Assembly (NCBI GenBank): GCA_964564045.1
Contig: CAZLZP010000001.1
Span: 9,039 to 73,038 of the forward strand
Direction of reading: 5' to 3'
Origin: an uncultured Rickettsiales bacterium
GTDB taxonomy: Bacteria > Pseudomonadota > Alphaproteobacteria > Rickettsiales > UBA8987
Length of the DNA stretch: 64,000 bases
This document shows positions 8,635-57,094 of this stretch, piece by piece (within the stretch, counting starts at the first letter, position 1; every line of letters begins with the position of its first letter). The translations under genes were made by a program, and so were the position numbers. Below the pieces are notes generated by a model. The model had not been told where the DNA came from. It was given only the letters and a program-made list of their open reading frames with translations, and did no database searches.

Positions 8635-8638
8635 TTTA

Positions 8639-23067: not shown

Positions 23068-23080
23068 AGGTCACCATCAG

Positions 23081-24292: not shown

Positions 24293-24294
24293 AA

Positions 24295-25338: not shown

Positions 25339-25355
25339 AAATCATCTTTTATAAA

Positions 25356-26884: not shown

Positions 26885-26890
26885 ATTGCT

Positions 26891-27400: not shown

Positions 27401-27418
27401 AAAACCTCCTATGAGTTA

Positions 27419-29557: not shown

Positions 29558-29573
29558 AACTTCCTACTTGGAA

Positions 29574-29942
29574 TTATACGGGACAAACTTTTTTAACTAC
29601 CTCTACCAGTTTATCTGGCTGGAATGGTTTTACTATCCAACCTGTTGCACCGGCATTCTTTCCTTCCATTTTTTTATTTGCATCACCTTCCGTGGTAAGC
29701 ATAAGTATTGGAACAGTTGCACTTGAAGCATTTGCCCTAACGGCCCTTATCATATCCATACCATTCATGTTAGGCATGTTCAGATCGGTTATTATAACAT
29801 CAATTTTATTGGCCTTAACCACTTCTAAACCTTTTACGCCATCTTCCGCTTCAAGAACGGTGTAGCCAGCACCCTTAAGTGTAAAGCAAACCATCTCACG
29901 TATAGTTTTTGAATCATCTACTGTTAATGCCACCTTAGTCAT
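29574..29942 (-). CDS. cheY: Chemotaxis response regulator CheY (single REC domain)
   Basis: 122 aa. 'VDDS', the phospho-acceptor context 'VIITDLNMPNMNG', 'LTTEG' and 'IVKPF'. Confidence 0.93.
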   Translation of the reverse strand: MTKVALTVDDSKTIREMVCFTLKGAGYTVLEAEDGVKGLEVVKANKIDVIITDLNMPNMNGMDMIRAVRANASSATVPILMLTTEGDANKKMEGKNAGATGWIVKPFQPDKLVEVVKKVCPV

Positions 29943-29943
29943 A

Positions 29944-30297
29944 TCAATTGCTCCAACTTGTTAATTCTTTTGATAATCCTACATCATAAAAAGCTTTTTT
30001 GAAAGCTTCACTTGGTGATGCAAGTTTAAAACTTATTTTTGCCAACTCACAAGATTTAGCGAGCGAGATAATTATCTGGATACACGGCGTTGTAATTCTA
30101 TTGACCCCAGATGCATCAACCAGCATTCCTTTCTGGGCACTTTTTTCAAATAATTCTATCGCCTCTTTCTTCAGTTTCTCTGCGTAAGAGATATCAAGCA
30201 CCTCACGAAGCTTTAACTGTACACCACTAGATTTAGAAGCTGGCGCTTTAGCAACCTTGTTTAACTTCTTAACCTTCTTTTTAACTTTTGGCGCCAT
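29944..30297 (-). CDS. STAS-like small chemotaxis protein (position and shape of alphaproteobacterial CheS/CheX-orf2 type)
   Basis: 117 aa. A K-rich N-terminus is followed by a STAS-like core ('MLVDASGVNRITTPCIQIIISL'). It lies directly upstream of cheY-cheA. Confidence 0.55.
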   Translation of the reverse strand: MAPKVKKKVKKLNKVAKAPASKSSGVQLKLREVLDISYAEKLKKEAIELFEKSAQKGMLVDASGVNRITTPCIQIIISLAKSCELAKISFKLASPSEAFKKAFYDVGLSKELTSWSN

Positions 30298-30298
30298 A

Positions 30299-30859
30299 TT
30301 AAAATAACTCTACTTCTTCCTGCTTGTTAACTTCACAAACTACCGGGTTGTAGCCTATTTCGGAGCCATCTTTTATCAAACCCGAAGAAAGGAGGTAATT
30401 GATAAAAACTTCTCGTATCTCGCCCAACTTCATATTTTCGAGTATTTTTTTGCCCAGATCAACATCCACTCCTGAACCGAGAATGGAAGATTTTTTTGAA
30501 ACTTCATTAAGTACCTCAGAGATATTCTTAAGTATCACCAAGTTCTGTGAAAGCCTATCTTGGAACTGCAGGCCCATGATAGCCGAACCAAGACCCTTTT
30601 CTATCTCTTCGAATACCGGCTTAAGTTCCGGAGAGGTATTTTGCTTGCTTAGTATTTTAGTAGAGGCCGCAATTTTTGAAAAGCTGTCGCTTATCACAAG
30701 TATGTTCTCTTCAACAAGCTGGTTCAGTTTTGGTATAACATCTTCAATGATTGTAAAAACAGATGTGGCCGTTGCAAGTATCTGCGACAATTCCTTCAGT
30801 TTCTGGTTCTCGTCTGCCATTTTTTCCTGCCCACCGGCTTTTAAAGCTGTTACTGACAT
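30299..30859 (-). CDS. Small helical che-operon protein with a CheZ-like FQDxxxQ motif and an acidic ...ELF C-terminus
   Basis: 186 aa. 'IMGLQFQDRLSQNLV' (nt 30545-30568) and C-terminal 'KQEEVELF'. It is paralogous to the C-terminal ~100 aa of the MCP-like protein at 23081-24292. Confidence 0.45.
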   Translation of the reverse strand: MSVTALKAGGQEKMADENQKLKELSQILATATSVFTIIEDVIPKLNQLVEENILVISDSFSKIAASTKILSKQNTSPELKPVFEEIEKGLGSAIMGLQFQDRLSQNLVILKNISEVLNEVSKKSSILGSGVDVDLGKKILENMKLGEIREVFINYLLSSGLIKDGSEIGYNPVVCEVNKQEEVELF

Positions 30860-33697: not shown

Positions 33698-34552
33698 TTA
33701 TAATTTACTAAAGGCCTCTTCAGCCTCTTTGAAGGTTGGGCGTACACCAGATGGAATTATTTTTCTAGCAAATTCTGCAGATATTGCAGGCGCATTACCC
33801 TGTACATGCGCAAGCAGGCCTGTTTTAATAACATCAAGGTATTTGTGGTGCATTTCGTAGTATTTACCTATAGAGCTGGCAAAGGGCTGTACAAAACAAT
33901 ATGATATAAGTACACCCATGAATGTACCAACAAGCGCCGCACCAATCAGGCCACCCAAAATTTCAGGTGGTTCAGAGATAGATCCCATGGTGATTATTAC
34001 CCCAAGAACCGCAGCCACGATACCGATCGCCGGGAATGCATCACCCATTATCTGGATAGCATGTGGAATAGCATGAGCTTCTGTAACACCAGCTTCTAAC
34101 TCGGCCAACATCATATCTTCAAGGGTATATTTGTTGTCGACACCCATGGTCATTACACGAACATAATCACAGAAGAATTCCACCGCATGATGATCTTCCA
34201 GAAAATGTGGGAATTTAGCAAAGATATCACTACCCTCAGGGTTTTCAATGTGAGCTTCTACCTCAAGCATTCCTTTGGTTTTCATGAATTTAAAGATTGT
34301 ATAAAGGAAGGAGAGAAGTTCAATGTAGCTATCTTTACTGATAGGATGGCCACCAACCATAAGTTTTTTAAAACTACCAAGCGCACCTTTAATTACATAC
34401 GAAGGGTTACCAATAACGAACGAACCAACGGCAGCGCCAACTATTATCAGATATTCATTTGGCTGGAAAAGTACGGCAAGGTTACCATGGTGCATTAAAT
34501 AGCCACCGATAACAGAACCAAAAACAATAATTATGCCGAGTATTACTCTCAT
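33698..34552 (-). CDS. motA: Flagellar stator protein MotA
   Basis: 284 aa. It is colinear with E. coli MotA as I recall it ('GGYLMHHGNLAVLFQPNEYLIIVGAAVGSFVIGN', 'GDAFPAIGIVAAVLGVI'). No motB is adjacent. Confidence 0.92.
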   Translation of the reverse strand: MRVILGIIIVFGSVIGGYLMHHGNLAVLFQPNEYLIIVGAAVGSFVIGNPSYVIKGALGSFKKLMVGGHPISKDSYIELLSFLYTIFKFMKTKGMLEVEAHIENPEGSDIFAKFPHFLEDHHAVEFFCDYVRVMTMGVDNKYTLEDMMLAELEAGVTEAHAIPHAIQIMGDAFPAIGIVAAVLGVIITMGSISEPPEILGGLIGAALVGTFMGVLISYCFVQPFASSIGKYYEMHHKYLDVIKTGLLAHVQGNAPAISAEFARKIIPSGVRPTFKEAEEAFSKL

Positions 34553-41291: not shown

Positions 41292-41399
41292 TAATTAATA
41301 CGAAACAGGTGGAGACACCAGAAAAGAAAATAACCTTGATTATTTTCCCCAACTACTTAAGCTTCCACAAATTTTCGAAACCTAATAATAGTTAATACA

Positions 41400-41999
41400 G
41401 TGTTTAGTTTCAATGAATATTTATATTTTATAGCTGCTTATCTTATAGGCTCGGTGCCTTTTGGTATCATAGTGGCTAAGGTGGCCGGAGTTGGCGACAT
41501 TACCAAGCAAGGTTCCGGCAATATCGGCGCCACCAATGTGGCACGCGTAGGAGGCAAAAAACTTGGTACAGCAACGTTTATCCTGGATTTTCTTAAATGT
41601 TATATTCCCACCACTATATATATAGACCAATTTGGTTATGGCGATGGTGCTTTAATATGTGCCTTTCTGATAGTTATCGGACATATACTCCCTGTTTTCA
41701 ATAGGTTCAGGGGAGGAAAAGGAGTTGCTTGCGGCTTTGGTGCCCTGCTTGCCCTAAACCCTTATGTGTGCATTATAAGTTTGTTGATATGGCTTGCGTG
41801 CTTCCTAACCACCAGAATATCTTCAGCATCTGCACTGTTAAGTTTTGCGCTTATGCCATTTGTTTTATTCATGGTGAATACATCTGCCAGCACTAACCTG
41901 ATGTTATTTGCTCTGGCATTGAGCGCTGTTATATATATACGGCATATAGAAAATATAAAAAGACTTCTGGGCGGCAACGAAAAAGGTTTCAAACAATAG
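41400..41999 (+). CDS. plsY: Glycerol-3-phosphate acyltransferase PlsY
   Basis: 199 aa polytopic protein with 'GSGNIGATN' and 'RFRGGKGVA' motifs. Confidence 0.9.
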   Translation: MFSFNEYLYFIAAYLIGSVPFGIIVAKVAGVGDITKQGSGNIGATNVARVGGKKLGTATFILDFLKCYIPTTIYIDQFGYGDGALICAFLIVIGHILPVFNRFRGGKGVACGFGALLALNPYVCIISLLIWLACFLTTRISSASALLSFALMPFVLFMVNTSASTNLMLFALALSAVIYIRHIENIKRLLGGNEKGFKQ

Positions 42000-43139
42000 T
42001 TGATAAACTTTAAAATGAATAAATTCTTTAACAAAGAGATATCAGAGAACCAGGAAGAAATAATTTCCGCCCTCAGACTTGCCAGAACCAATAGTATAGG
42101 CCCAATAACTTTCCAGAAATTAATAAAGAAATATGGTAAACCCAGTAACGCTATAAAAGGCTCGGAAGAAATACTGAAAAAGAAAGGCGAAAGCCTAAGG
42201 CCGCTAAAAGATATTGAGGAAGAAATAAGGAAGGCCGAAAAAGTTGGCGCAAAAATAATAACTGTTTTTGATAAAAATTATCCTTCACTGCTTTCCGAGA
42301 TACAAGACCCACCTATTATTCTTACAGTAAAAGGCCAAATTGATAAGGTTCAGAACAGCAATGTTGCGCTTGTTGGTGCAAGATACGCTTCAGCCAACGC
42401 TGTTTCATTTACTTATAAGCTTGCAAAAGATCTTTCAGATAAAAATCAGACCGTGGTTTCAGGGCTTGCACGCGGCATAGATACCGCAGCCCACAAAGGA
42501 TCTTTGGCAAATAAGAATAATGAACTGCCAACCATTGCGGTTGTTGCAGGTGGAATAGATAATATCTACCCGCCGGAGAATGCAAAACTTTTTGAAGAGG
42601 TTGCTGAACGCGGAATAATAATCACCGAGAATGAGTTTGGCACCATTCCAAAACCTGAGCATTTTCCGCGCAGGAACAGGATAATATCTGGTATATCGCA
42701 GGTTACCTGTGTGGTGGAAGCAGCCCTGAAATCTGGCTCGCTTATAACAGCAAGATTAGCGCTGGAGCAAGGAAGGGAAGTTGCGTGCGTACCTGGCTTC
42801 CCGGCTGACCCAAGAAGTGAGGGCACTAATTTGCTGATCAAGCGAGGGGCAAGCCTTGTAACCGGCGCGAATGATCTTATCGAACTGCTTCAAAATTATG
42901 ATTCCAGAGAAATAAAAGTGAATAATATTTTCAGCGAGGAAGATGCCGAAGAATTTTTTGATGAAACAGAAAGTGATGTGGAACTTCTTAGTGTTATAGG
43001 AAACACCCCGGTTGCTGTTGACGAACTGGTTTCCATATATGGGTTTTCAGCTTCGGAAATAAACTCAAAACTACTTGAATATGAATTATCTGGCGAGATC
43101 ATAAGGTTGCCTGGAAACAAGGTTTTAAAGGCTGCCTAA
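42000..43139 (+). CDS. dprA: DNA-processing protein DprA
   Basis: 379 aa, or 374 aa if the ATG at 42015 is used. Rossmann-like core 'VSGLARGIDTAAH' and 'VVEAALKSGSLITA', with a C-terminal winged-helix-like tail. Confidence 0.9.
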   Translation: MINFKMNKFFNKEISENQEEIISALRLARTNSIGPITFQKLIKKYGKPSNAIKGSEEILKKKGESLRPLKDIEEEIRKAEKVGAKIITVFDKNYPSLLSEIQDPPIILTVKGQIDKVQNSNVALVGARYASANAVSFTYKLAKDLSDKNQTVVSGLARGIDTAAHKGSLANKNNELPTIAVVAGGIDNIYPPENAKLFEEVAERGIIITENEFGTIPKPEHFPRRNRIISGISQVTCVVEAALKSGSLITARLALEQGREVACVPGFPADPRSEGTNLLIKRGASLVTGANDLIELLQNYDSREIKVNNIFSEEDAEEFFDETESDVELLSVIGNTPVAVDELVSIYGFSASEINSKLLEYELSGEIIRLPGNKVLKAA

Positions 43140-43157
43140 AATAAATATTTATACCCC

Positions 43158-43186
43158 TTTAAAAACTTCAAATTAAGTGCTATAAT
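43158..43186 (+). promoter_or_regulatory. Candidate sigma70-type promoter for ssrA
   Basis: TTTAAA (43158-43163), a 17-nt spacer, then a perfect TATAAT (43181-43186) just upstream of the tmRNA acceptor piece. Confidence 0.35.
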
Positions 43187-43194
43187 AACCCTTG

Positions 43195-43510
43195 CCGCAA
43201 GGCTATGGTGATAAATGTCTTCTCGGAATAGACAGATTGGACCCGGGGGCAGTACCCGGCGCCTCCACCAAAGTTCACTTGAGAATTAAAGTGAATTTCG
43301 GCGGGGGCGAATAGGCTCGACAAGTGTAATAAAGGTTTAGATTTTACCCAGTATGATTCCACTGCAAAGGGTTATAATTACAAATGCAAACGATAACTTC
43401 GCTGCATCTGATGAACTTGCTATGGCTGCGTAGTCTCTCTTTAGAGATAAAACAGTTTAAGTTCATCTAGGGGCCCGCGGGGAGCCTGGCAACAGAATCT
43501 CCGCATTTTT
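43195..43510 (+). ncRNA. ssrA: Two-piece (circularly permuted) tmRNA
   Basis: The acceptor piece ends in 'CGCCTCCACCA' (to 43270). A spacer hairpin follows (TTCACTT/AAGTGAA). The coding piece starts 'GGGGGCGAATAGGCTCGAC' at 43303 and pairs with the 3' strand, giving a G3:U pair. The tag ORF GCA AAC GAT AAC TTC... at 43386-43430 encodes ANDNFAASDELAMAA, followed by TAG. The 5' boundary is approximate. Confidence 0.85.
43477..43510 (+). terminator. Intrinsic terminator of ssrA
   Basis: Stem GCGGGGA (43477-43483) / TCTCCGC (43498-43504) with one G:U pair, followed by TTTTT (43506-43510). Confidence 0.6.
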
Positions 43511-43838
43511 CTGAATAGATCTCCAAAATTATTTCTCGAATTTATTTTTTGCAACCCTGCGTTTAAAGAAAATTTTTCAAGGATTTTTTCCAAAAATTTT
43601 GTTACACGGTTAAGTGATTGAATCTTTACAAATTTGAAAAGATTTTCATATATCTTCTGAGCGCCGCCTTGTTCCGTGAAACAACCAATTTTGCTTGCTT
43701 ATACGTGTCAATAAAATTCGCAAAAATAATTTTTTAATTATTCTGTTTACGCACTACATTTTTTCGTTAGATTGAATTTCTCGAAAAAAATTTTTTAGGT
43801 TTTGTTCAGGGGATTTTTTAAAAATATTATTTTGTAAA

Positions 43839-45158
43839 ATGATAACAGGGGATATAAACAGCTACGCAGAATTTGAGAAGATCTGGCAAAGAATATGCGC
43901 CAAGTTCAGCTTCAATATTGGCGTTTCAACTTTTAATAGTTGGATAAAGCCCCTTGCTTTCTGCGGGTTTGACGGCGGCGTTGTAACCTTAAAGGCCCCT
44001 TCTCGCTTCATCAAAGACTGGGTAGTTTCGAACTTCGGTGAACAGCTTGAAGTTTATTTCCGCGAAGAAAATCCTTCTTTCCTTGGTTTAGATATTCAGG
44101 TTGATACAAGAAGAGATATTGAAACAACAGAAGCGCACGTTGCAGCCATACAATCACGCGAGGATGAAAACAAAATTATAAATAATACCGCTTATTTTGA
44201 AAGCAATCTTGATAACAGATTCAAGTTTGAAAATTTCATTACCGGAGATTCAAACAACCTGGCATTTACCGCCTCACAAAAATTAGCAAATGGTGAAGAC
44301 CTTGGCGCCAATACATTAATGATATATGGCAGTGTTGGCTCAGGCAAAACTCACCTACTACAATCTATAGCACATTATATAAGGGAAAATTATCCCCAGA
44401 AGAAGGCCCTTTACCTTTCGGCCGAAAAATTCATGTTCCAGTTCGTAAAAGCCATTCGCGAGAGAGATATGGTTTCCTTCAAAGAATATCTGCGCGCTGC
44501 CGACATATTACTTATAGATGATATTCAGTTCATCTGCGGCAAGGTTGTGCTTTCTGCAAATCGTGCGCCGAGTGACTTCACCGATATTGATGAGCGTATA
44601 AAATCTCGTCTTGGCTGGGGTTTGGTTGCTGATATTAAAAAACCTGATCTAAACCTGCGCCTGGATATAGTAAGATCTAAAGCCAGGTTATTGAATGTTG
44701 AACTAAATGATAATATAGTTCAGTTCCTTGCTGAAAATATAAATACCAATGTGCGTGAGCTTGAAGGCGCACTTATAAAGGTTGTTGCACAATCACGGTT
44801 AACAGGCGCTAATATTACCATCGATTTCGCCATAGAAGTATTGAAAGACCTGCTTCGCGGCGTTCGTAAAGAAATAACCATTGAAGAGATAAAGCGTACT
44901 GTTTGCAGCAAGTATGACATAAAAATGTCAGAGATAGATTCCGCAAGAAGAGACAGGAAGGTATCTCGCCCAAGACAAGTTGCCATGTATCTTTCTAAAA
45001 ATCTTACAACAAAAAGCCTGCCGGAAATTGGCCGTAACTTTGGTGATAAGAACCATACAACTGTTATCCACGCCATAAAGAACATTGAAAAACTTAAAGC
45101 GCTTGAGCCTGAGATAGATAACCGCATAGCAGAACTTACCAGAATGCTTGCCTCTTAG
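43839..45158 (+). CDS. dnaA: Chromosomal replication initiator DnaA (with an apparent internal ~20-aa deletion)
   Basis: 439 aa. Walker A 'GSVGSGKTH', Walker B 'LLIDDIQF', '[10 protein letters not shown]', 'NVRELEGAL' and the domain IV block '[12 protein letters not shown]...[11 protein letters not shown]'. The '[10 protein letters not shown]'-type helix is absent. Confidence 0.88.
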   Translation: [439 protein letters not shown]

Positions 45159-45181
45159 TTTTTCTATTATATTCTGCTGAT

Positions 45182-45877
45182 ATGGCAGAAGAAAAACAAC
45201 ATTACCACGGACATAGAAAAAGGCTTAAAGAGCGATTCCTTAAATCTCTCAAGGCCAACAAGTCTGACTCTGCACCAGATTATGAAATTCTGGAAATGAT
45301 ATTATTTTCAGCTTATCCACGCCAGGATACAAAACCGATCGCAAAAGAACTGATTCAAAAGTTTGGTAGTATTGCAGGGGTTTTTGCTGCAGATGCAGAA
45401 CGTCTGGAGAAAGAGGGAAAACTTAGTGAGGGTGTAATATTTGCTCTGAAAATTATTAATGAAGCTGCGTTACGTTTACTGAAAAGCAGGGTAACCGAAA
45501 AGCCGGTAATACAAAGCTGGAAGGCCCTGCTAGATTACTGTCAGGCCGCAATGGGAAGCATTACCCGCGAGCAGTTCCGTATAATGTTCCTTGATAAAAA
45601 GAACAGGCTTATAGCTGATGAAATTCAACAGGAAGGTACGGTTGACCAAACACCTGTGTACCCTCGTGAGGTTGTTAAGCGGGCGCTTGAACTTGGCTCA
45701 AGCGCAATAATTTTAGTACATAATCACCCGAGTGGTGATGCCACGCCTTCAAAAAGCGATATTGAACTTACGGAACAAATTGAAGCAGGGCTAAAAGCCG
45801 TTGAAATAAAACTGCACGACCATTTAATAATAGCTGGCGATAAGCATTTCAGCTTTGCCGGGAATGGGTTGCTTTAG
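45182..45877 (+). CDS. radC: RadC-family JAB/MPN-domain protein
   Basis: 231 aa. N-terminal 'GHRKRLKERF' and the JAMM motif 'LVHNHPSGDATPSKSD'. Confidence 0.9.
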   Translation: MAEEKQHYHGHRKRLKERFLKSLKANKSDSAPDYEILEMILFSAYPRQDTKPIAKELIQKFGSIAGVFAADAERLEKEGKLSEGVIFALKIINEAALRLLKSRVTEKPVIQSWKALLDYCQAAMGSITREQFRIMFLDKKNRLIADEIQQEGTVDQTPVYPREVVKRALELGSSAIILVHNHPSGDATPSKSDIELTEQIEAGLKAVEIKLHDHLIIAGDKHFSFAGNGLL

Positions 45878-45888
45878 GAGTCGAGGCT

Positions 45889-46083
45889 CTAGGCAATAAT
45901 TCCGCCGCCATCTTCTGATCTTTTCTTTTCCATCACATATTTAAGTTTTTTCATGGCCAGCTTTTTCATATCTGACTGGGAAAGTTGCACCGGCAAGATG
46001 GAAAGTGCTTCAATTCCCGTTTCCTCATCAATTGCAGAAACCTTCATGTAGTCACCATATTTTATGAACTCGAGTATAGCCAT
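45889..46083 (-). CDS. Small conserved-looking hypothetical protein
   Basis: 64 aa. It starts 1 nt after the tsaD stop, so it is probably co-transcribed. I recognise no motif with confidence. Confidence 0.45.
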   Translation of the reverse strand: MAILEFIKYGDYMKVSAIDEETGIEALSILPVQLSQSDMKKLAMKKLKYVMEKKRSEDGGGIIA

Positions 46084-46084
46084 T

Positions 46085-47107
46085 TTATAGTTCCTCTAGG
46101 CTCCAGCGTGCCCTTGGGGTAAAATCCAGGTTATCCCTTATTCCAGCTTTGAACCTTTCAACACCAGCCCAGGCTATCATTGCAGCGTTATCTGTACACA
46201 GCTTTAGGGGCGGCGCGTAAAATTCAAACTCACGTCCGATCAAAAGTGATTTTATCTTTCCACCAATATATTTATTGGCCGCTACACCACCAGATATAAC
46301 GAATCTTCTTTCTGAATGACTTCTGAGATATATTTTTAATGCGGTTTCTATGCGCTCAAGAACTTCCTGGGTAGCAATATTCTGGAAAGACGCGCAGATA
46401 TCTTTTTTATCCTGATCATTAATATTAAAACCGATCGCCTCTATCTCCCTGAGTACCGCCGTTTTAAGGCCTGAGAACGAAAAAGCACAATCTTTCTGGC
46501 CTTGAAGAGGCACCCTGAACCTGTATTTATTCTCGTCACCTTCTGCCGCCATTTTTTCAACGATTGGCCCACCAGGATAACCCAGCCTAAGCATTTTTGC
46601 GGTTTTATCGAACGCCTCGCCCAGCGCATCATCTAGTGTTTCGCCGATTATTTTATACTTACCAAGCGCTTCACAAATTATTAACTGGCAGTGTCCACCC
46701 GAAACAAGCAACAGCAAATATGGGAATTCAACATCATCAGTAAGGCGGCATGTTAAAGCGTGGCCTTCAAGGTGGTTAACGCATATTAAAGGTTTGCCGG
46801 TTGCTGCCGAAAGGCCCTTGGCATACATCAGCCCAACAATAACTCCACCGATCAAGCCTGGCCCCGCCGTTACTGCAATAGCATCTATATCTTTTAATTT
46901 TGTTTTTGACTGCTCAAGAGATTCCCTGACCACGGTTTCTATATTTTCTATGTGGGCTCGAGAGGCTATCTCAGGAACCACACCGCCATAAGCCTTGTGC
47001 TCCTCGGTCTGGGAGTAGATAACATTGGAAAGTATATTGCGTGAGTCATCCACCACTGCGGCTGCAGTTTCATCACAACTTGTTTCTATGCCAAGAATTT
47101 TTACCAT
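46085..47107 (-). CDS. tsaD: tRNA N6-adenosine threonylcarbamoyltransferase
   Basis: The canonical N-terminus 'MVKILGIETSCDETAAAV' begins at 47107. Motifs 'HLEGH' and 'SGGVAAN'. The ORF-track extension to 47269 overlaps the divergent gene and is unlikely. Confidence 0.93.
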   Translation of the reverse strand: MVKILGIETSCDETAAAVVDDSRNILSNVIYSQTEEHKAYGGVVPEIASRAHIENIETVVRESLEQSKTKLKDIDAIAVTAGPGLIGGVIVGLMYAKGLSAATGKPLICVNHLEGHALTCRLTDDVEFPYLLLLVSGGHCQLIICEALGKYKIIGETLDDALGEAFDKTAKMLRLGYPGGPIVEKMAAEGDENKYRFRVPLQGQKDCAFSFSGLKTAVLREIEAIGFNINDQDKKDICASFQNIATQEVLERIETALKIYLRSHSERRFVISGGVAANKYIGGKIKSLLIGREFEFYAPPLKLCTDNAAMIAWAGVERFKAGIRDNLDFTPRARWSLEEL

Positions 47108-47157
47108 TAATATTATTTTTTTATTTATGTTTACTTTTATAAGGCTAAATTCCTGAT

Positions 47158-47604
47158 ATGCCAGCCCATTCTGATAAATATCATTCATCTCACTCTGCAA
47201 AAGAACTATTTGATATAGTTGCAGATGTAGAGAAATATCCTGAGTTCCTGCCCTGGGTAACCGCCACAAGAATAACCGAAAGGTTCGAGAAACATTTCGT
47301 TGCCGATATGGTAGTGAATTTTAAAGGACTGACACAGAAATACACTTCGAAGGTTGATCTGATAACAGATAAGAATTTTCCTGAGATAGATGTAGGACTG
47401 GTGAAAGGACCTTTCAAGCATTTGAAAACACACTGGATATTTGAGCCGGCAGAGAAAGGTACCAATATAATTTTTGAACTGGATTTTAAATTTCAGTCTG
47501 CGGTGCTGGAAAAAATGATCGGCTATTTTTTTGAAAAGGCAGTAGGTAGAATGACCGATGCTTTCATTAAACGCGCCGATGACCTACTAGGAACTAGTAC
47601 TTAG
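47158..47604 (+). CDS. SRPBCC/START-fold protein (RatA / COQ10-like)
   Basis: 148 aa. 'LFDIVADVEKYPEFLPWV' is the characteristic RatA/Coq10 N-terminal block. Confidence 0.8.
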   Translation: MPAHSDKYHSSHSAKELFDIVADVEKYPEFLPWVTATRITERFEKHFVADMVVNFKGLTQKYTSKVDLITDKNFPEIDVGLVKGPFKHLKTHWIFEPAEKGTNIIFELDFKFQSAVLEKMIGYFFEKAVGRMTDAFIKRADDLLGTST

Positions 47605-48109
47605 CCTTAAGTTTTTTCGCAGTATTCTTAGAAACGAACTCTGCAACATTGCCGCTAAGCCTTGCCACTTCTTTAACCAGGCTGGACGCGATGAACTGGG
47701 TTTCTTCAGATGCGGGAATGAATATTGTTTGCACAGAAGGTTGCAGACGCGAATTCATTGAAGCCAGCTGGAATTCATATTCAAAATCACTCACCGCACG
47801 CAGGCCGCGCACAACAACCTTGGCTTTATTCTTTTTCGCAAAATTCATCAGCAGGCCGGTGAACCCAACAACTTCAATTCTATCAGTGAATTCGGGGCAA
47901 TATTCTTTTATATCGTTCTTTACCATATCAACCCTTTCCTTAAGATTGAACAGCGTGTTTTTAGGAGTATCGTTCGCTATGGCAACTATAAGCTTGTCGC
48001 AAATGCTCATTGAACTTATAACAACATCAATATGGCCAAGCGTTATAGGATCGAACGTACCGGGATATACCGCAACAGTACTTCTAGAATTTTGCTTTTT
48101 TGAGCTCAT
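47594..48109 (-). CDS. coaD: Phosphopantetheine adenylyltransferase
   Basis: 171 aa. 'AVYPGTFDPITLGHID', 'RGLRAVSDFEYE' and 'SSSLVKEV'-like motifs. Confidence 0.93.
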   Translation of the reverse strand: MSSKKQNSRSTVAVYPGTFDPITLGHIDVVISSMSICDKLIVAIANDTPKNTLFNLKERVDMVKNDIKEYCPEFTDRIEVVGFTGLLMNFAKKNKAKVVVRGLRAVSDFEYEFQLASMNSRLQPSVQTIFIPASEETQFIASSLVKEVARLSGNVAEFVSKNTAKKLKAKY

Positions 48110-49040
48110 TATATACCTTGCTTAATATTTTAGAAACCTTCTCAGGCGATATTTTCTTGCCAGATTGTTTAGCATTTGTAACCACAGAAGTAAAGCTTTT
48201 ATAGCCAGAACCAGCATATTCTGTGTATTTTAAAGGTATTATATCGATGTAGGAACTGGCAATTATTTTTGCCGCAACATCGAACTCGTTTTTACCACTA
48301 TACGAAGATACATATTTAAGTTTGCGTAAAAATGAACTTAAGAATTCCTTATGAACTTTTTTCAGATTTTCTGAATTGAATTTGAATATTTCAACCCACA
48401 TGTCTTCCGGAGAGTTCATCAGACGGGAAAACTCTCCCCCACCCTTCGGGAATATTTTAGAGATACTATGGCTTATATATTGAACATAGTGCGAAACATA
48501 AGCATATATCTCATCGTGCTTTTTTGCATTTAGAAATTCAATCTCGACCCCTGCATCACGCCAAAGTTCAGCAATTTTTTTGCCTTTTTTACAGTTTGCA
48601 GTTTTGCATATGATAAGTTTTTTACCTTTATACAGGTTAGCTGAAGCGTGCTCAATACCGCCTTTTTCCTTACCTGCTATTGGGTGCGCTGGCACAAAGA
48701 AGCTTTTGTATTTTTCAGGAATAGTTTTAAGAGCCTGCTGCACCGGTGCAAATTTTACTGACCCGACATCAGAGATTATTCTTTTACCATCAAGATATTT
48801 TAAAAGTTTTTTACAGATAGCAGAATACGAGCCCAGCGGTGTTGCTATTATTATTACTTCTGAATTCTCGGCAAGCTGCTCAACCGAATCAAAATATTTA
48901 TCAACCGCATTAAGCTTAACAGCTTTTTTAGAGACCTCTGCCCTTCTGTTCCAGCAATACACCTTATGCCTGCCTGATGCCTTAAGCGCCAAAGCCAGCG
49001 AACCGCCGATCAAACCTGTTCCGATTATACCTACGCGCAT
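48084..49040 (-). CDS. tyrA: Prephenate/arogenate dehydrogenase family protein
   Basis: 318 aa. Rossmann 'IIGTGLIGGS', 'DVGSVK', 'HPIAGKEKGG' and 'HDEIYAYVSH'. Confidence 0.78.
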   Translation of the reverse strand: MRVGIIGTGLIGGSLALALKASGRHKVYCWNRRAEVSKKAVKLNAVDKYFDSVEQLAENSEVIIIATPLGSYSAICKKLLKYLDGKRIISDVGSVKFAPVQQALKTIPEKYKSFFVPAHPIAGKEKGGIEHASANLYKGKKLIICKTANCKKGKKIAELWRDAGVEIEFLNAKKHDEIYAYVSHYVQYISHSISKIFPKGGGEFSRLMNSPEDMWVEIFKFNSENLKKVHKEFLSSFLRKLKYVSSYSGKNEFDVAAKIIASSYIDIIPLKYTEYAGSGYKSFTSVVTNAKQSGKKISPEKVSKILSKVYNELKKAKF

Positions 49041-49366
49041 TAGAATTTCTTAGGTTTGTATAATTTTGTAACTTCAACCCCAACCTTTTCAGACTCCGGA
49101 GAAAGAACAACCTCACACTCCGCAATTTTATTTCCGTCAACTATCAGATCAAGCGATTCGGCCCTTCCCTTTCCAAGTTCAACTATTGAACCGCGGGTTA
49201 TTTTAAGATACTGGCCTATAGGCATTTTAATTTTGCCCAGCAATACCTTCATGTTGAGTTTTATATCACCAAAACCCTGCAGGCTGGATAAAATTTCTGC
49301 CGGCTGCATAGGTGCGGCAGTTTCTTGTTGATTATTCTCTTTATTTTCTTCACTCATATTAGTCAA
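49040..49366 (-). CDS. fliN: Flagellar motor switch protein FliN (SpoA domain)
   Basis: 108 aa. 'IKLNMKVLLGKIKMPIGQYLKITRGSIVELGKGRAESLDLIVDGNKIAECEVV' matches the FliN C-terminal domain. Confidence 0.85.
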   Translation of the reverse strand: MTNMSEENKENNQQETAAPMQPAEILSSLQGFGDIKLNMKVLLGKIKMPIGQYLKITRGSIVELGKGRAESLDLIVDGNKIAECEVVLSPESEKVGVEVTKLYKPKKF

Positions 49367-49386
49367 AATACACTAAATATTATTTT

Positions 49387-50172
49387 ATGGAAAGTTTATT
49401 ACAAGATAGGTTATTTCTATTGCTTCTGTCTGGCCTTTTTGGTGCTTTATTCGGCAGTTTTGCAACAGCTTTGATATACCGATTGCCAAGAGAAATTAAC
49501 TGGGTAAGCAAAAGATCTGCCTGCAGCAAGTGCGGCCATACACTAGGCGCCCTAGACCTTATTCCGCTGCTGACATATATATTCACGCTGGGAAAATGCA
49601 GATATTGTAAAACCAAATTCGGCAGTACGTATCTTTTGATAGAATTACTGATGGTGGCAGGTTTTATACTCTCGGCCTACTTATTCGGACCAACATTCAA
49701 AACAGTGATAATTTGCATATTGGTATTTGCCACCATCATTATTTTTGCCGTAGATTTTGAGCATTATATCATTCCCGATGAGGTAAACATTCTTATATTC
49801 CTGACTGGCCTGGCATATGCCATTTACAATAACTCTGGCATGGAGCAGTATCTATTCATGCCTTTATTCTACCTGGCGCTGGCGCTGGCGCTAAGGTACC
49901 TAATGTTCTTCTGGAAAAAGAAAGAGGGCCTTGGCCTTGGTGATGTTAAATTCTTTCTGGCAGCCGGTACTTTCTTATCAATAGAAAGTCTTTCCATTTT
50001 TCTTTTTATATCTGGTGCAACTGGAATTGTTATTGCTATAATATGGAAAATTCTGAAGAAGGGTGATATCTTTCCATTCGGACCCGCTTTATCACTTTCG
50101 TTGCTTTTTTGTGTCGCTTTCCCGGAAAGCAATCAAAAATTAATAACGTTTGTGCAAGAATTGATTTATTAG
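49387..50172 (+). CDS. pilD: Type IV prepilin peptidase (A24 family)
   Basis: 261 aa. N-terminal Cys pairs 'CSKCGH...CRYCKT', polytopic, with catalytic Asp contexts 'FAVDFEHYIIPD' and 'GLGLGDVKF'. Confidence 0.88.
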   Translation: MESLLQDRLFLLLLSGLFGALFGSFATALIYRLPREINWVSKRSACSKCGHTLGALDLIPLLTYIFTLGKCRYCKTKFGSTYLLIELLMVAGFILSAYLFGPTFKTVIICILVFATIIIFAVDFEHYIIPDEVNILIFLTGLAYAIYNNSGMEQYLFMPLFYLALALALRYLMFFWKKKEGLGLGDVKFFLAAGTFLSIESLSIFLFISGATGIVIAIIWKILKKGDIFPFGPALSLSLLFCVAFPESNQKLITFVQELIY

Positions 50173-50241: not shown

Positions 50242-52092
50242 ATGATGACAAGTAGCTACAAAAAATTATTTATTACTCTTTTTCTTTCCGGGGCAACCTT
50301 CTCGTGCCAGATGAACAACGATTACGACGAAACAAGAAAAGAAGGTTATAAAACATTCCCGAAAAGAGAAGATAGCTGGTTCAGCAATCCAAAAGATAAG
50401 CTTGATCCATACGGCGACCTGAGCAGGGCTGACTATGAGGGAGTTATCAACACCGACAGAAAATTCCTGGCAGCCACCGGCCCGGTTACCCCTAAAATAA
50501 AAATGCCTAATCTTACCGACCTTCTGGAAGATCCTGAAGAGCAAACTCTTATAAGCGATAAGCTTGTTTCTATTTCTGTGAACGAAAATGTTCCGCTTAA
50601 AGATGTTATAGTTGAGTTGGCAAGAAGGGCCGAGGTTGATGTTGAAATAGACCAGGATATAAGCGGCGGTATAATATTTATTGCGAAAGATAAGCCTTTC
50701 TCTCAGGTTATTGACAGAATATGCAAAATGGCCGGCCTGAGATATTCTTTCTCTGATGGTATATTAAAAATAGAAGGTGATAACCCTTACGTAAAAAATT
50801 ACAAATTCAACTTACTTGATATAACCAGAAAATCTCAGTCGAGCATTAATACTTCTTTCTCTGTTGGCGGCTCAGAATCAGGCGGCTCTAATTCTTCGGG
50901 AAACAGCGAGAGCGACAGTAATGCCGGAGGCGGTACTTTTGCTGGCGGCTCTAATTCTTCCTTAGATTCTCAGTCTGGTGATGGTGATATCTGGAAGAAC
51001 ATATCTGATGGCGTTACAAAAATTCTTTCTATGTATACCAGTAAAAAGGCCGCCCCTGCTGAAGGGCAAGATGCTTCTGCTGGCAGCAGTGGTATAATAT
51101 CTGTGAACAAGAATGCCGGGATGATTTCTTTAATTGCCACTGATAAACAACATGCAGCTGTTAAGGAATATTTAGACAGAGTTCATATTGAACTTACCTC
51201 TCAGGTGCTAATTGAAGCAAGGGTTGTTGAAGTTAACCTTAGTGATGAATACAGCAGTGGTATAAACTGGAACCTTGTAACAAAAGGAGCCAGCACAACT
51301 AATAACCTTGCTATTGGTGGTAGTTTAGGAGCTGCAGAAGCAGCTATTGATCAGTTAGACGGTGATAGTTTCAAGTTGTCTTTATTGCCTTCAACCCTGT
51401 TCGGTGAAGATGCCACTATTGCTTCATCTATAGAATTATTACAAACATTCGGCACTACCCGCTCTCTTTCCAACCCAAGAATAAGCGCGCTTAATAATCA
51501 GTTTGCCGTGCTTAATTTCTCTACCAATGAAGTATATTTTGAGGTTGAACAGAATAGTACCACAACTACCAGTGCCGGCGGTTCGAATGACCAGAACTCT
51601 GTATCAACTAACATAAGAAGTGTTCCTATTGGGGTTGTGCTTACGCTGCAACCTTCTATTGATCTTCAGAAGAGTGAAGTACTTATGAGTGTAAGGCCTA
51701 CTTTAACAAGAGTTACGTCTAGGGTTGAAGATCCGGGCGCACAAATTATTGCGGCCGGTGAGGATAATCTAAATCTGGATTCTTTCTCCTCAAAAATACC
51801 AGTGGTTGATACCAGAGAGCTTGATACTATGCTGCGCATTAAGAATGGCGAGATAATGGTTATTGGTGGCTTGCTTGAAGAAAGATCTGAAAATACTGAT
51901 ACTGGCTTACCTGGTATTTCAAGAATTCCTTATTTCGGTAATGCCTTTAAAGGTGTTAGTAAAACAACCACGAATATTGAAACTGTTATCTTTATAAAAG
52001 CTACCATAGTTCCTGGTAAAGGCGTTTCAGTTGAAGATGAAGATTTCTACAAAAAGTTTACAACGGCTAGAACAAAGTTCATGCCAAACTAA
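50242..52092 (+). CDS. Secretin-family outer-membrane channel (MshL/PilQ/GspD-like), probable lipoprotein
   Basis: 616 aa. Signal peptide ending 'ATFSC', N-domains, an S/G-rich linker and a C-terminal secretin domain ('VLIEARVVEV', 'PVVDTRELDT', 'GLPGISRIPYFGNAFK'). Confidence 0.85.
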   Translation: MMTSSYKKLFITLFLSGATFSCQMNNDYDETRKEGYKTFPKREDSWFSNPKDKLDPYGDLSRADYEGVINTDRKFLAATGPVTPKIKMPNLTDLLEDPEEQTLISDKLVSISVNENVPLKDVIVELARRAEVDVEIDQDISGGIIFIAKDKPFSQVIDRICKMAGLRYSFSDGILKIEGDNPYVKNYKFNLLDITRKSQSSINTSFSVGGSESGGSNSSGNSESDSNAGGGTFAGGSNSSLDSQSGDGDIWKNISDGVTKILSMYTSKKAAPAEGQDASAGSSGIISVNKNAGMISLIATDKQHAAVKEYLDRVHIELTSQVLIEARVVEVNLSDEYSSGINWNLVTKGASTTNNLAIGGSLGAAEAAIDQLDGDSFKLSLLPSTLFGEDATIASSIELLQTFGTTRSLSNPRISALNNQFAVLNFSTNEVYFEVEQNSTTTTSAGGSNDQNSVSTNIRSVPIGVVLTLQPSIDLQKSEVLMSVRPTLTRVTSRVEDPGAQIIAAGEDNLNLDSFSSKIPVVDTRELDTMLRIKNGEIMVIGGLLEERSENTDTGLPGISRIPYFGNAFKGVSKTTTNIETVIFIKATIVPGKGVSVEDEDFYKKFTTARTKFMPN

Positions 52093-52131: not shown

Positions 52132-52899
52132 ATGATTACCACTATTAGATATGTTCTGCTTACCGCATTGCGTGACTGGCTTTTTATGGGCCTTCTGGGC
52201 TCGCTTCTGGTTGCCGTGTTCATCTCGTACTTCATGGGTTCTACAGTACTTGTAGAAAAGAACGAAATAGCTTCAAGCTTCACCGCCGGCTCTACCAGAA
52301 TTATTCTGGTGGTAGGCATGATAGTATTTGTCTGCTTTCACGTTAGAAGGGCCTTCGAAAATAAAGAGATTGAACTGATGCTATCCCGCCCGATATCTCG
52401 CGAACAATTTGTGGTATCTTACTGGCTAGGCTTTTCGGTTGTAGCCACAATAATAGTTGCCGTTATAACTTTATTCATAATGTCGTTCTACGGATTTAAT
52501 TATAAGGGCCTTTCATTCTGGGCCACCACAATGGAGTTCGAGATACTTATAGTGATAGCCTTCTCGGTGTTTGCTTCTATCATACTTAAATCATCTGTTT
52601 CATCTGTTATGTTAAGTTTTGGCTTTTATATAATATCCCGAATGATCGGGTTCTTTTCATATGTACTGGAAAAACATCCGGCAACAGAGATACTGAGTTT
52701 CGATTTTTATTCACATAAGGTTATCTGGCTTGCCTCTTATCTGCTTCCAAGGCTTGATCTGTTCTGCCAAAGCAAATGGCTTATATATGGCGTTAATTTC
52801 TCAGAATTCAACTGGTTCATACCGGTTGTGCAAACTGCAATTTATGTTCCTTTATTGCTTACAATGGCAGCGATAGACTTTAAACGTAAACAGTTTTAG
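52132..52899 (+). CDS. Polytopic membrane protein, ABC-2-type permease-like
   Basis: 255 aa with ~6 TM helices. 'ENKEIELMLSRPISR' resembles the conserved loop of ABC-2/GldF-like permeases. No ATPase gene is nearby. Confidence 0.5.
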   Translation: MITTIRYVLLTALRDWLFMGLLGSLLVAVFISYFMGSTVLVEKNEIASSFTAGSTRIILVVGMIVFVCFHVRRAFENKEIELMLSRPISREQFVVSYWLGFSVVATIIVAVITLFIMSFYGFNYKGLSFWATTMEFEILIVIAFSVFASIILKSSVSSVMLSFGFYIISRMIGFFSYVLEKHPATEILSFDFYSHKVIWLASYLLPRLDLFCQSKWLIYGVNFSEFNWFIPVVQTAIYVPLLLTMAAIDFKRKQF

Positions 52900-52913: not shown

Positions 52914-53756
52914 ATGAAAAAAACTAATACACTTACCCTGTTCATATTCTTTCTGTTAACATTACAATTCTTCTTCTGGAATGGAATAAGATCTGGTTTC
53001 GAAAGCTCTGCTAAGGTTGAATGGAAAGGCACCAGAAGCATCAAGCCTGAGCTGGAAGTGGTTCCCGCCGCGCCTTCAAAAGAAATGCTGAAAGCCTTCT
53101 CGTTCGGTGATGAACAGCTTACTTTCCGTTATAACGGTTATATCATGCAGTTCCTTGGTGATACATTCGGCAGGGTAACCCCATTAAAAGACTATAACTT
53201 TGAAAGACTGTACAGGTGGTGGGTTCTTTTGGATGAGGTTGATTCTGATTCAAACCTTATAGCATATATAGTTGCTTATTATTATGGGTCAACACAGGAT
53301 TCTGCGGGTGATATACCTTATGTTGTAGATTTTCTTGAGCTTCATTCTGATAAACACCCGTCTGAAAACTGGTGGTGGTATTCTCAGGCTATATATTATG
53401 CCAAGCATAAGCTTAATGATACTGATCGCGCACTAAGAATAGCAAAAAAACTTGCCGAACTTCCCAAAGATCTTGATATTCCTATATGGACCAGGCAGTT
53501 GCAGGCCTTCATATACGAAGGTAGGGGCGAATATAAACAAGCTTGTGATATTGCAGTTAACGTAATTCGTGATTACGGGGCAGGAAAACTTGATCAGGGT
53601 GAGATAAATTTTATGTTCGACTTTATTAAAGAGCGCCTTAGAAAGCTAATTGAAAAGGAATCTACCATTGCCAAGGCTGATATAAGTGATGCCTGCAGGG
53701 AGCTAATGGAAGTGCAGAAAGCTAACGATCTTAGAGAAAAGGCCAGCCGACCTTAA
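52914..53756 (+). CDS. Hypothetical membrane-anchored/exported helical protein
   Basis: 280 aa. Hydrophobic N-terminus, then a W/Y-rich helical region ('SENWWWYSQAIYYAKHKLNDTDRALRIAKKLA', possibly TPR-like). I do not recognise a family. Confidence 0.5.
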   Translation: MKKTNTLTLFIFFLLTLQFFFWNGIRSGFESSAKVEWKGTRSIKPELEVVPAAPSKEMLKAFSFGDEQLTFRYNGYIMQFLGDTFGRVTPLKDYNFERLYRWWVLLDEVDSDSNLIAYIVAYYYGSTQDSAGDIPYVVDFLELHSDKHPSENWWWYSQAIYYAKHKLNDTDRALRIAKKLAELPKDLDIPIWTRQLQAFIYEGRGEYKQACDIAVNVIRDYGAGKLDQGEINFMFDFIKERLRKLIEKESTIAKADISDACRELMEVQKANDLREKASRP

Positions 53757-53817: not shown

Positions 53818-55053
53818 ATGAGTAATGAAATCAAATATGAAGAGTTTTACCGCATTAAAAGGCTTCCGCCTTACGTTTTTGCTGAAGTAAATTATGCAAA
53901 GGCCGAGGCAAGAAAACGCGGTGAGGATATTATAGATTTTGGCATGGGCAACCCCGATTCCCCTGCACCAGAGCATGTTATCAGAAAAATGAAAGAAACC
54001 ATCTCTCGCCCTGATATCCATGGTTACGGCGTATCTCAGGGCTTGCTTGGTTTGCGCAAAGCGGTTGCAGGTTATTACGAAAGAAGGTTCCATGTAGACC
54101 TTGATCCGGAAACAGAAATAACCTGTTCACAGGGTTCAAAGGAAGGTTTGTATCATCTGGCTGTAGCTATATCTAAGCCTGGTGATAATATAATTGTGCC
54201 AGACCCTAGCTACCCCATTCACACATATGGCTTTATGCTTGCTGAGGCCGCTATTCATTCTATTCCGAGAGATTTCTCGGTTGATACTGCAACTGATTTA
54301 CTACCTAAATTCAAGCACGCTATTGAAACTTTAAATCCAAAACCACTTGCTATTGTGGTTAACTACCCTTGCAACCCAACCTCTGAAACTGTTGATATCT
54401 CGTTCTATCAAGAGCTTGTGGATATTTGCAGAAAATATAATGTTATTCTTATATCTGATTTGGCTTACAACGAAATTTATTTCGATAACAACCCTCCGCC
54501 ATCTGTTTTGCAGGTTAAAAATGCTAAAGATGTAGCGGTTGAATTCACCACCTTAAGTAAAACCTATTCAATGGCTGGCTGGAGAGTTGGTTTCTGCGTT
54601 GGCAATAAAGAAATAATCAAGGCTCAGAAACGTGTTAAATCTTACCTAGATTACGGCAGTTTCATGCCAATACAAATAGCAGCTACACACGCTCTGAACG
54701 GCCCGCAAGATTGCGTTGAGGGCTTCAGGAATTTATATCATTCCCGCCGCGATATTATGTGCGATGGGTTAATTAAAGCTGGCTGGGATATAACACCACC
54801 TAAAGCTTCTATGTTCCTATGGGCAAGAATACCTGAAAAATTTAGAAGTATGGGCTCGGTAGAATTTGCTAAACTGCTTTTAAAAGAGGCTAAAGTAGCT
54901 GTTTCTCCTGGTGCAGGCTTTGGTCTTCATGGTGATGAATATGTTCGTATATCTTTCATTGAAAATGAACAAAGAACACGCCAGGCCGTACGCAACATAA
55001 AGCAGTTCTTCAAGAAAGAAGGGATTGCTCCCAAAGATTCTAAAGTAGCATAG
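53818..55053 (+). CDS. Class I/II PLP-dependent aminotransferase (AlaC/aspartate aminotransferase-like)
   Basis: 411 aa. 'LPPYVFAEV', 'NYPCNPT' and the PLP-lysine context 'TLSKTYSMAGWRVGF'. Confidence 0.86.
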   Translation: MSNEIKYEEFYRIKRLPPYVFAEVNYAKAEARKRGEDIIDFGMGNPDSPAPEHVIRKMKETISRPDIHGYGVSQGLLGLRKAVAGYYERRFHVDLDPETEITCSQGSKEGLYHLAVAISKPGDNIIVPDPSYPIHTYGFMLAEAAIHSIPRDFSVDTATDLLPKFKHAIETLNPKPLAIVVNYPCNPTSETVDISFYQELVDICRKYNVILISDLAYNEIYFDNNPPPSVLQVKNAKDVAVEFTTLSKTYSMAGWRVGFCVGNKEIIKAQKRVKSYLDYGSFMPIQIAATHALNGPQDCVEGFRNLYHSRRDIMCDGLIKAGWDITPPKASMFLWARIPEKFRSMGSVEFAKLLLKEAKVAVSPGAGFGLHGDEYVRISFIENEQRTRQAVRNIKQFFKKEGIAPKDSKVA

Positions 55054-55816: not shown

Positions 55817-57094
55817 ATGTTCATAAACTACGATAAAGAAGCAGAAAGAAATCTGCTGGAGATAAAGCGGAAAAAACTCTTCAGAGATTACCCGCTTATA
55901 TCTTCTATTGCTGAAAATGCCCCTTACGGAATAAATGAAAAGAACGGCAACAAAGTTATTATATGGGGAAATAACAATTACTTAGGGCTTTCTACACACT
56001 CAAAAGTTATAGCTGCAAAAATAAATACCGTTAAAAAATCTGGTACAAGTTCAGGCGGAACAAGAAATGTACTGGGCACCTCCAAAATTTTGAATGACCT
56101 GGAAATGAAGATAGCCAGCTGGCATGGTAAGGAAAAGGCGCTGGTGCATATTTCAGCGCTTGATGCTAACATTGGCGTTTTGGGAGCTTTGGGAAGAATA
56201 TTTAAGAATGCTGTCTTCCTTTCAGACGAAAATAATCATGCTTCGATCATTGATGGCATTAGAATAAGTGCGGCATCTAAATATATATTCAAACATAATG
56301 ATATTGCCGGGCTTGAAAATAAACTGAAAGAGATACGCACGGCCTCTGATGAAAGGCCTATAATTATTGTTGTCGAATCAGTTTATTCAATGAGCGGTGA
56401 TAAGGCAAAATTGAAGGAAATAGTTGAATTAAAGAATAAATATAATGCATTGTTATATCTTGATGAAGTACACGCCATAGGTATTTTTGGCAAGCGAGGC
56501 ACCGGCCTGGCCGAAGAACTTGGCCTTCTTGATGATATTGATCTTATCTGTGGAACCCTAGGTAAATCGGTAGGTTCAGCGGGTGGATATGTTACCGGTA
56601 GCACGGATATGATAGAATTTTTAAGGCATAATTCGCGTAATTTTATTTATACCACTGCCCTTTCACCTGATACCGCGGCGGCGGCATTGGCGGCAATAAA
56701 TATCATAGATTCAGCTGAAGGTACTGAACTTCGAGATAAGCACAAAAAAGTTATCAGGGAATTTAAAAAAGTGCTGAAGAAACATAACATAGAATTTTTA
56801 AATAACGAAGCGCACATAGTGCCTATAATTATTGGTGATGAACAGAGAACTAGCCTGATAGCAAGTGATTTGCTAAATGAATATAACATTGCCGTAACGC
56901 CACTTTTTGCACCAACTGTACCAATAGGCAGCGCACGCTTGCGTGTTAACCCAACTCCAAATCACACTAAGGAAATGGCCGAAGAATTTGGAGCCGCGCT
57001 GAGCACATTATTTAAAAAATATTCTGATACTAAACTTGTTGCTAATACGAACGAAGAAGCTAAATTAAAAAATAAATCGAGAGGGAGAAAATAA
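55817..57094 (+). CDS. hemA: 5-aminolevulinate synthase (alpha-oxoamine synthase family)
   Basis: 425 aa. 'WGNNNYLGL', 'GTSSGGTRN', 'ESVYSMSGD', 'DEVHAIG' and the PLP-lysine 'GTLGKS'. The ALAS assignment rather than BioF/Kbl is based on the SGGTRN block and overall colinearity. Confidence 0.8.
   Translation: MFINYDKEAERNLLEIKRKKLFRDYPLISSIAENAPYGINEKNGNKVIIWGNNNYLGLSTHSKVIAAKINTVKKSGTSSGGTRNVLGTSKILNDLEMKIASWHGKEKALVHISALDANIGVLGALGRIFKNAVFLSDENNHASIIDGIRISAASKYIFKHNDIAGLENKLKEIRTASDERPIIIVVESVYSMSGDKAKLKEIVELKNKYNALLYLDEVHAIGIFGKRGTGLAEELGLLDDIDLICGTLGKSVGSAGGYVTGSTDMIEFLRHNSRNFIYTTALSPDTAAAALAAINIIDSAEGTELRDKHKKVIREFKKVLKKHNIEFLNNEAHIVPIIIGDEQRTSLIASDLLNEYNIAVTPLFAPTVPIGSARLRVNPTPNHTKEMAEEFGAALSTLFKKYSDTKLVANTNEEAKLKNKSRGRK

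Follow-up and report, generated by a model that had tools for sequence, protein, structure and literature searches.

The dnaA gene in the 64,000-nt stretch of DNA analysed here (hereafter the window) lacks, in frame, the 20 codons for the helix that joins the Walker B and sensor-I strands of the AAA+ domain. Among the sequences compared, this loss is private to this one metagenome-derived sequence, and its direct-repeat bounds bear the signature of polymerase slippage or template switching. On balance, we favour the view that the deposited dnaA does not represent a working gene, the deletion being either non-biological or too recent or too rare, and that the functional initiator of the organism most likely still carries the helix.

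The dnaA gene and its missing segment

The gene is an orthologous, chromosomal dnaA, and its source is an uncultured Rickettsiales-like alphaproteobacterium, whose nearest named relatives are MAGs designated 'uncultured Rickettsiales' or 'Pseudomonadota', at 62-64% identity. Its parts, numbered on the window and on the encoded protein, are as follows:

43839..45158, + strand: dnaA CDS, a 439-aa, in-frame, stop-free ORF (matches to three Pfam families; conserved synteny)
43875..44063, + strand: domain I (DnaA_N), residues 13-75, intact (Pfam PF11638 positions 1-64 of 65, E=3e-16)
44328..44351, + strand: Walker A, G164-T171 (GSVGSGKT), intact (G167, G169, K170, T171 and H172 invariant in a 120-sequence alignment)
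44508..44522, + strand: end of the Walker B strand, L224-D228 (LLIDD), intact (D227 and D228 invariant; AlphaFold strand 223-226)
44538..44544, + strand: deletion junction, i.e., the sole kept GGCAAGG copy (60 nt, or 20 codons, absent in the DNA alignment with L001, the ENA metagenome scaffold from which the dnaA DNA of the closest relative, P0002, was taken)
44544..44564, + strand: sensor-I strand, V236-R242 (VVLSANR), intact and now almost abutting Walker B (alignment; AlphaFold strand 237-240)
44592..44609, + strand: Box VII / arginine-finger region, E252-R257 (ERIKSR), intact (alignment invariance)
44754..44756, + strand: sensor II arginine R306 (NVRELEG), intact (R306, E307, E309 and G310 invariant)
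44880..45086, + strand: domain IV DnaA-box-binding helix-turn-helix, residues 348-416, intact (PF08299 positions 1-69 of 69, E=7e-28)

The three Pfam families match with 59.2 bits for DnaA_N (gathering cut-off 24.6), 153.6 bits for Bac_DnaA (cut-off 23) and 97.0 bits for Bac_DnaA_C (cut-off 31.5). Within the Box VII region, which we take to be the equivalent of E. coli R281/R285 (our own numbering), E252, R253, S256 and R257 are invariant in a 13-sequence alignment, and R257 is invariant in the 120-sequence alignment as well. The initiator-specific motif is also present, helices 195-207 and 211-220 lying ahead of strand 223-226 in the AlphaFold2 model of the window protein, as they do in the relative; superposing domain IV of the same model on that of E. 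coli (1j1v) gives a TM score of 0.99, box binding itself being a prediction. The original prediction had described Walker A and B, Box VII and domain IV as intact, and both the Pfam matches and the alignments bear this out, with sensor II to be added. Pfam families, chromosomal orthology, Walker A and B, the Box VII arginine, the sensor II arginine and the initiator-specific motif are thus all those of a DnaA protein, and the one feature that is missing is a complete AAA+ alpha/beta core with the Walker B-to-sensor-I crossover helix. By descent, this is an ordinary alphaproteobacterial dnaA that fails in a single defining feature, and most likely it is not a new kind of initiator.

It had been proposed from the sequence that about 20 residues are gone, in frame, at 44543/44544, and HMMER, MAFFT and DNA-level alignments all confirm it. 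K235 is encoded by nt 44541-44543 and V236 begins at 44544, the placement of the junction being free anywhere inside the kept GGCAAGG copy. With the Pfam Bac_DnaA profile as with orthologues, the gap is seen and the helix is absent from the window DnaA: the profile matches the protein in two stretches, the first of which covers profile positions 1-112 of 162 and ends at residue 235, while the HMMER alignments to solved DnaA structures are broken at residues 235/236, leaving out residues 223-242 of the B. subtilis protein. Against 8BTG, K235/V236 aligns to B. subtilis K222/E223, and the alignment resumes at residue 235/236 versus 242/243. In the 13-sequence alignment, the same loss takes the form of a clean 20-column gap carried by the window protein alone.

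Relatives were collected from a 5.8-billion-protein collection, the returned proteins being 445-509 aa long. Those of the same clade (n=8, 66-78% identical) read CGK-xNxQEEFIHTFNAxxENGxx-(I/V)VL at the site, the closest of all, P0002, reads ANIQEEFIHTFNAIIENGGK, and at the nucleotide level the missing 60 nt are expected to resemble GCNAAYATHCARGARGARTTYATHCAYACNTTYAAYGCN... The spacing from DDxQF (Walker B) to ERxxSR (Box VII) is 25 residues in the window, whereas each of the 115 listed relatives with both motifs has 45; the QEEF helix is also present in the four relatives missed by this spacing pattern, i.e., in 119 of 119 listed relatives, and the Q, E, E, F and N of the lost segment are invariant across all of them. 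A spacing of 45 is likewise found at each of the 158 scored loci from GTDB genomes and JGI metagenomes. Since the value is 45 in every scored relative and locus, the shorter spacing reflects neither natural length variation nor chance.

An identical 439-aa protein (P0001; NCBI source, single member, on an 88,977-bp contig) is present in the public protein collection, so the deletion belongs to the deposited record. No same-species sequence was found in the protein collection, in the GTDB species genomes (a set without the window's own genome) or in the JGI metagenomes, the best identity to the window DnaA being 64% in the GTDB species genomes and 43-45% in the JGI metagenomes. A 57-aa query spanning the junction, for which only short proteins were candidates, returned no more than two short fragments, each of which contains the helix, and missed P0001 itself; this search is a poor guide to other helix-less DnaA proteins.

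Two other readings of the gap were rejected. There is practically no chance that the helix is present and was misaligned at the outset: HMMER, MAFFT and DNA alignments give the same 20-codon gap, and nothing like the 60 nt of the closest relative occurs elsewhere in the 64-kb window. The opposite reading, an intein or insertion in the relatives, is at odds with the nature of the segment, which is the universally conserved QEEFxHTFN helix.

The structural role of the segment was addressed with AlphaFold2 models of P0002, run with a 119-sequence alignment, and of the window protein, modelled in the same way. In the model of P0002, the Walker B strand (222-226) is followed by a turn (228-231), a helix (235-250) and the sensor-I strand (254-259), with pLDDT values of 95-97 across the region. 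In the model of the window protein, strand 223-226 leads into a 10-residue coil (227-236) and then strand 237-240, helix 235-250 of the relative has no counterpart, and pLDDT is 62 for residues 231-240 versus 81-87 on either side. The modelling of the closest relative thus agrees with the original prediction that the missing piece is the helix between Walker B and sensor I, and the structural argument then made stands. The lost piece is the right-handed crossover between adjacent parallel AAA+ strands. The remnant is a stretch of 7-10 residues that includes the Walker B aspartates themselves. The window model superposes on B. subtilis domain III (8bv3) with a TM score of 0.85 and an rmsd of 2.6 Å, which is no evidence of stability, because AlphaFold threads homologous sequence onto the family fold. 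We infer that the product of the gene would be unable to serve as a normal ATP-dependent initiator.

The lost residues presumably correspond to E. coli DnaA 244-263 (in our own numbering, which is consistent with the published mutation names H252Y and Y271H), and their B. subtilis equivalents are residues 223-242, including E223 and E228. The deleted stretch includes the equivalents of three residues of known importance, namely E. coli R245 and H252 and B. subtilis E228. R245 is part of the 'B motif', and the R245A substitution abolishes single-stranded DUE binding (PMC3287180), while H252 is the dnaA46/dnaAcos site (PMC3905854). In B. subtilis, E228 hydrogen-bonds a captured DnaA-trio base and growth of the E228A mutant is severely impaired (PMC10721633). 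K235, which is kept, is the counterpart in the alignments of the basic B-motif lysine (K209 in T. maritima, K222 in B. subtilis), so this DNA contact would not be removed by the deletion.

Direct repeats, selection and gene neighbourhood

Alignment with the dnaA DNA of L001 leaves a single clean 60-nt gap in the window gene, with TGTGGCAAGG...GGCGGCAAGG on its flanks. L001 carries GGCAAGG at gene nt 697 and again at 757, exactly 60 nt apart, of which the window keeps one; the bounds read ATCTGT-GGCAAGG-CT and AATGGC-GGCAAGG-TT in L001, and ATCTGC-GGCAAGG-TT in the window. With such a repeat flanking 60 nt in the relative and a single copy in the window, the deletion is therefore a copy-choice product. 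When the preceding GC is included, the retained repeat reads GCGGCAAGG, and the ancestral repeat would have these 9 nt if the Cys codon was TGC, as in two other relatives. Flanking microhomology of at least 7 nt accompanies only 0.08% of the possible 10-200-nt deletions in the L001 gene, in which there are only 23 repeat pairs of this kind.

In the mechanism that we propose, a polymerase would slip or switch template between the two GGCAAGG (Gly-Lys codon) repeats, with the loss of exactly 60 bp and hence the removal of the segment coding for the Walker B-to-sensor-I helix. The in-frame outcome is automatic and no evidence of selection, because both repeats consist of the codons GGC-AAG, read in one and the same phase. 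Deletions that arise by slippage between short direct repeats are a textbook class of mutation and also a known class of in vitro artefact, and for this reason we regard the deletion as one of an already known kind.

As regards selection, the window DnaA keeps the residue in all 40 of the 40 columns that are invariant across 120 sequences. Tajima relative-rate counts with seven outgroups give 18-26 unique changes on the window branch versus 21-37 on the P0002 branch, i.e., no rate acceleration on the window dnaA lineage relative to P0002. The dN/dS of the window dnaA versus L001 is 0.07, within the range of the neighbouring genes, a value that excludes only an old inactivation because dS is saturated (>1). 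A decaying pseudogene was accordingly rejected: the ORF is intact, the non-synonymous rate is not raised and the invariant residues are all kept. Pfam domains are complete and in a single stretch in 40 other proteins of the window. The deletion is thus recent relative to the split from the nearest relative, or not biological at all.

The order plsY-dprA-dnaA-radC-DUF6898-tsaD is common to the window and L001, and the part from dprA to tsaD (dprA-dnaA-radC-DUF6898-tsaD) is also found in locus L002. Over a longer range, the window is collinear with L001 (EF-P, PLP enzyme, GGDEF-EAL, plsY, dprA, dnaA, radC, DUF6898 and tsaD), and no comparable indel was found elsewhere in the neighbourhood in this comparison. 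There is one difference in gene content: L001 has a GNAT acetyltransferase gene (144 aa; 8093-8527) between radC and DUF6898, which is absent from the window, where radC is directly followed, at 45878-45888, by the DUF6898 homologue.

Between dprA and dnaA lies a two-piece (permuted) alphaproteobacterial tmRNA gene (43154-43507, + strand; Rfam alpha_tmRNA, 213.8 bits), which fills most of the 700 bp ahead of dnaA; L001 has a similarly large gap at the corresponding position (5307-6000). Between the tmRNA gene and the dnaA start, 330 bp (43508-43838) are very A/T-rich, with many A/T tracts; this stretch is presumably the dnaA promoter region, and it contains no consensus DnaA box. The genes lie nearly all on the minus strand over 1-41.3 kb and mostly on the plus strand thereafter (about 41300-50000), and the cumulative GC skew has its minimum at about 40-50 kb. 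This pattern would fit a replication origin near dnaA, but the skew is confounded with the coding strand, and no DnaA-box cluster was found near dnaA, the window having two perfect boxes (22169 and 38505) and scattered one-mismatch boxes.

Coding density in the window is high, and its sequence is free of Ns. The window encodes a complete chemotaxis cluster, MotA, FliN, a secretin, dnaX, uvrC, putA, purL, trpA and pgk, and the organism looks motile and biosynthetically capable, not like a reduced endosymbiont likely to shed dnaA. The chemotaxis cluster (22765-30297, - strand) comprises genes for a STAS protein, an MCP, CheB, CheD, CheR, CheW, CheA and CheY, and two small ORFs after CheY (29944-30297 and 30299-30859) have no strong Pfam match; MotA is encoded at 33698-34552. 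Other groups of genes are a Bat/MoxR-type operon (2573-9580, - strand), with a MoxR AAA_3 ATPase, DUF58, DUF4381, two VWA proteins and a BatD-like protein, and two class I/II aminotransferase genes (53818-55053 and 55817-57094, + strand) with a 130-aa ORF between them. Two ORFs (52132-52899 and 52914-53756) lie downstream of the secretin gene (50242-52092) and match no Pfam family at E<=1e-10.

Possible origins of the deletion

Three explanations were offered when the deletion was first noticed, namely a sequencing or assembly deletion, a recently inactivated gene and a genuinely aberrant initiator, and they are still the right set. We lean towards a deposited sequence that is unrepresentative of the organism. 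This reading follows from the inferred inability of the protein to act as a normal ATP-dependent initiator, and it is favoured because DnaA is essential in almost all bacteria, because the lost element is length-invariant and bears residues that have been tested elsewhere, and because the organism is unlikely to shed dnaA. That the deletion is repeat-bounded and private, with no trace of relaxed selection in the gene or of decay in the neighbours, likewise favours a sequencing or assembly deletion and argues against a long-standing inactivation. A non-biological deletion could have arisen in amplification, library preparation, sequencing or contig joining, for instance by template switching during amplification at a low-coverage locus or, as we ourselves would suggest, by the joining of two contig ends that overlap in the 9-nt repeat; alternatively, the contig may carry a non-representative allele of the population. 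De Bruijn assemblers normally do not collapse repeats of 7-9 nt, and a consensus normally reflects the majority of molecules, so that an artefact would presumably call for low coverage, for amplification (MDA or PCR duplicates) or for contig joining by overlap. No further assembly anomaly is seen elsewhere on the contig, which speaks against an artefact, and the microhomology fits a genuine in vivo slippage mutation equally well.

The deletion could instead be real and fixed, or at least the majority allele, DnaA having been inactivated very recently and survival being ensured by another initiator (a second dnaA elsewhere, or an integrated plasmid or phage replicon), by DnaA-independence or by polyploidy, in which intact copies complement the deleted one. 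Slippage between short direct repeats is a normal mutation in vivo, the junction carries such a signature and the deposited consensus carries the deletion. Life without dnaA also has precedents in symbionts, cyanobacteria and E. coli: Blochmannia and further insect symbionts have dnaA as a pseudogene or not at all (PMC4389277), replication does without DnaA in some cyanobacteria (PMC7198777), and an E. coli dnaA null mutant is viable when the plasmid R1 origin replaces oriC (PMC3905854). We regard this recent inactivation as a serious rival, though a rather unlikely one. The search for a second dnaA, suggested from the start and run on the 64-kb window, found none, and no hda was found there either; dnaA shows no trace of relaxed selection, nor do the 40 neighbouring genes show decay, and the gene content is that of a motile, biosynthetically capable bacterium, not of a reduced endosymbiont. 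Moreover, an allele that is lethal or strongly deleterious would not be expected to become the consensus in a natural population. A real deletion could also have left a shortened DnaA that works as the sole initiator, the remaining 7-10 residues serving as a non-helical crossover in a minimised AAA+ core. Catalytic and DNA-binding motifs are all kept, as is the reading frame; the conserved basic residue of the loop, K235, is retained, and AlphaFold threads the DnaA fold, in which the predicted 10-residue coil (227-236) would be long enough for the sheet. However, among about 270 relatives none tolerates a length change of even one residue at this site, the Q, E, E, F and N of the helix never vary in the 119 relatives, and the helix bears residues whose importance has been demonstrated in B. 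subtilis and E. coli. The preserved frame stems from the codon repeat and not from selection, and the threading, with a pLDDT of 62 at the junction, is weak evidence and no test of stability. A functional helix-less DnaA is therefore very unlikely, and the least likely of these three readings. We would be similarly surprised by a real majority allele in a free-living motile alphaproteobacterium, by which either a coil-only AAA+ core works or the lineage has just become DnaA-independent, and hold it to be highly improbable.

If the sequence is an artefact or unrepresentative, which we judge most likely, the observation matters for quality control only. As an artefact, the DnaA deposited for this MAG would be unfit to serve as a natural sequence in alignments, in the training of structure prediction or in completeness checks based on essential genes, and in-frame deletions flanked by direct repeats would be a class of errors or variants worth screening for in MAG proteins. 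A deletion that proved real and fixed would be a rare experiment of nature, of interest to the replication field: either the AAA+ initiator fold tolerates the loss of its universally conserved crossover helix, or a non-symbiotic alphaproteobacterium replicates without a functional DnaA.

Comparison with known DnaA systems

The window protein has the same four-domain layout as canonical DnaA proteins, such as those of B. subtilis (8BTG/8BV3), A. aeolicus (1L8Q/3R8F) and T. maritima (2Z4R), with which it shares DnaA_N, the linker, the AAA+ domain III motifs and the domain IV helix-turn-helix (E=3e-85 to 8BTG). Unlike them, it is without the helix and loop that lead from the Walker B strand to the sensor-I strand, lining the ssDNA-binding pore. 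P0002 (ENA ERZ23499410 scaffold_1028; Logan SRR13957628), from an uncultured alphaproteobacterium, is 78% identical at the amino acid level and encoded in the same gene order; it differs in its length of 458 aa, in the presence of the helix ANIQEEFIHTFNAIIENGGK and in the GNAT acetyltransferase gene after radC.

Precedents for a broken, absent or dispensable dnaA are found in Blochmannia obliquus and other endosymbionts and in the DnaA-independent cyanobacteria (PMC4389277, PMC7198777). The genomes in those cases are reduced or polyploid, and dnaA either carries several nonsense or frameshift mutations or is gone altogether, whereas the window has a single in-frame deletion in an otherwise conserved gene, on a fragment without other decay. 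The same Walker B-sensor-I stretch is affected in the E. coli mutants dnaA46/dnaAcos H252Y and R245A (PMC3905854, PMC3287180); those, however, are single substitutions with partial or conditional defects, while in the window the whole element is gone.
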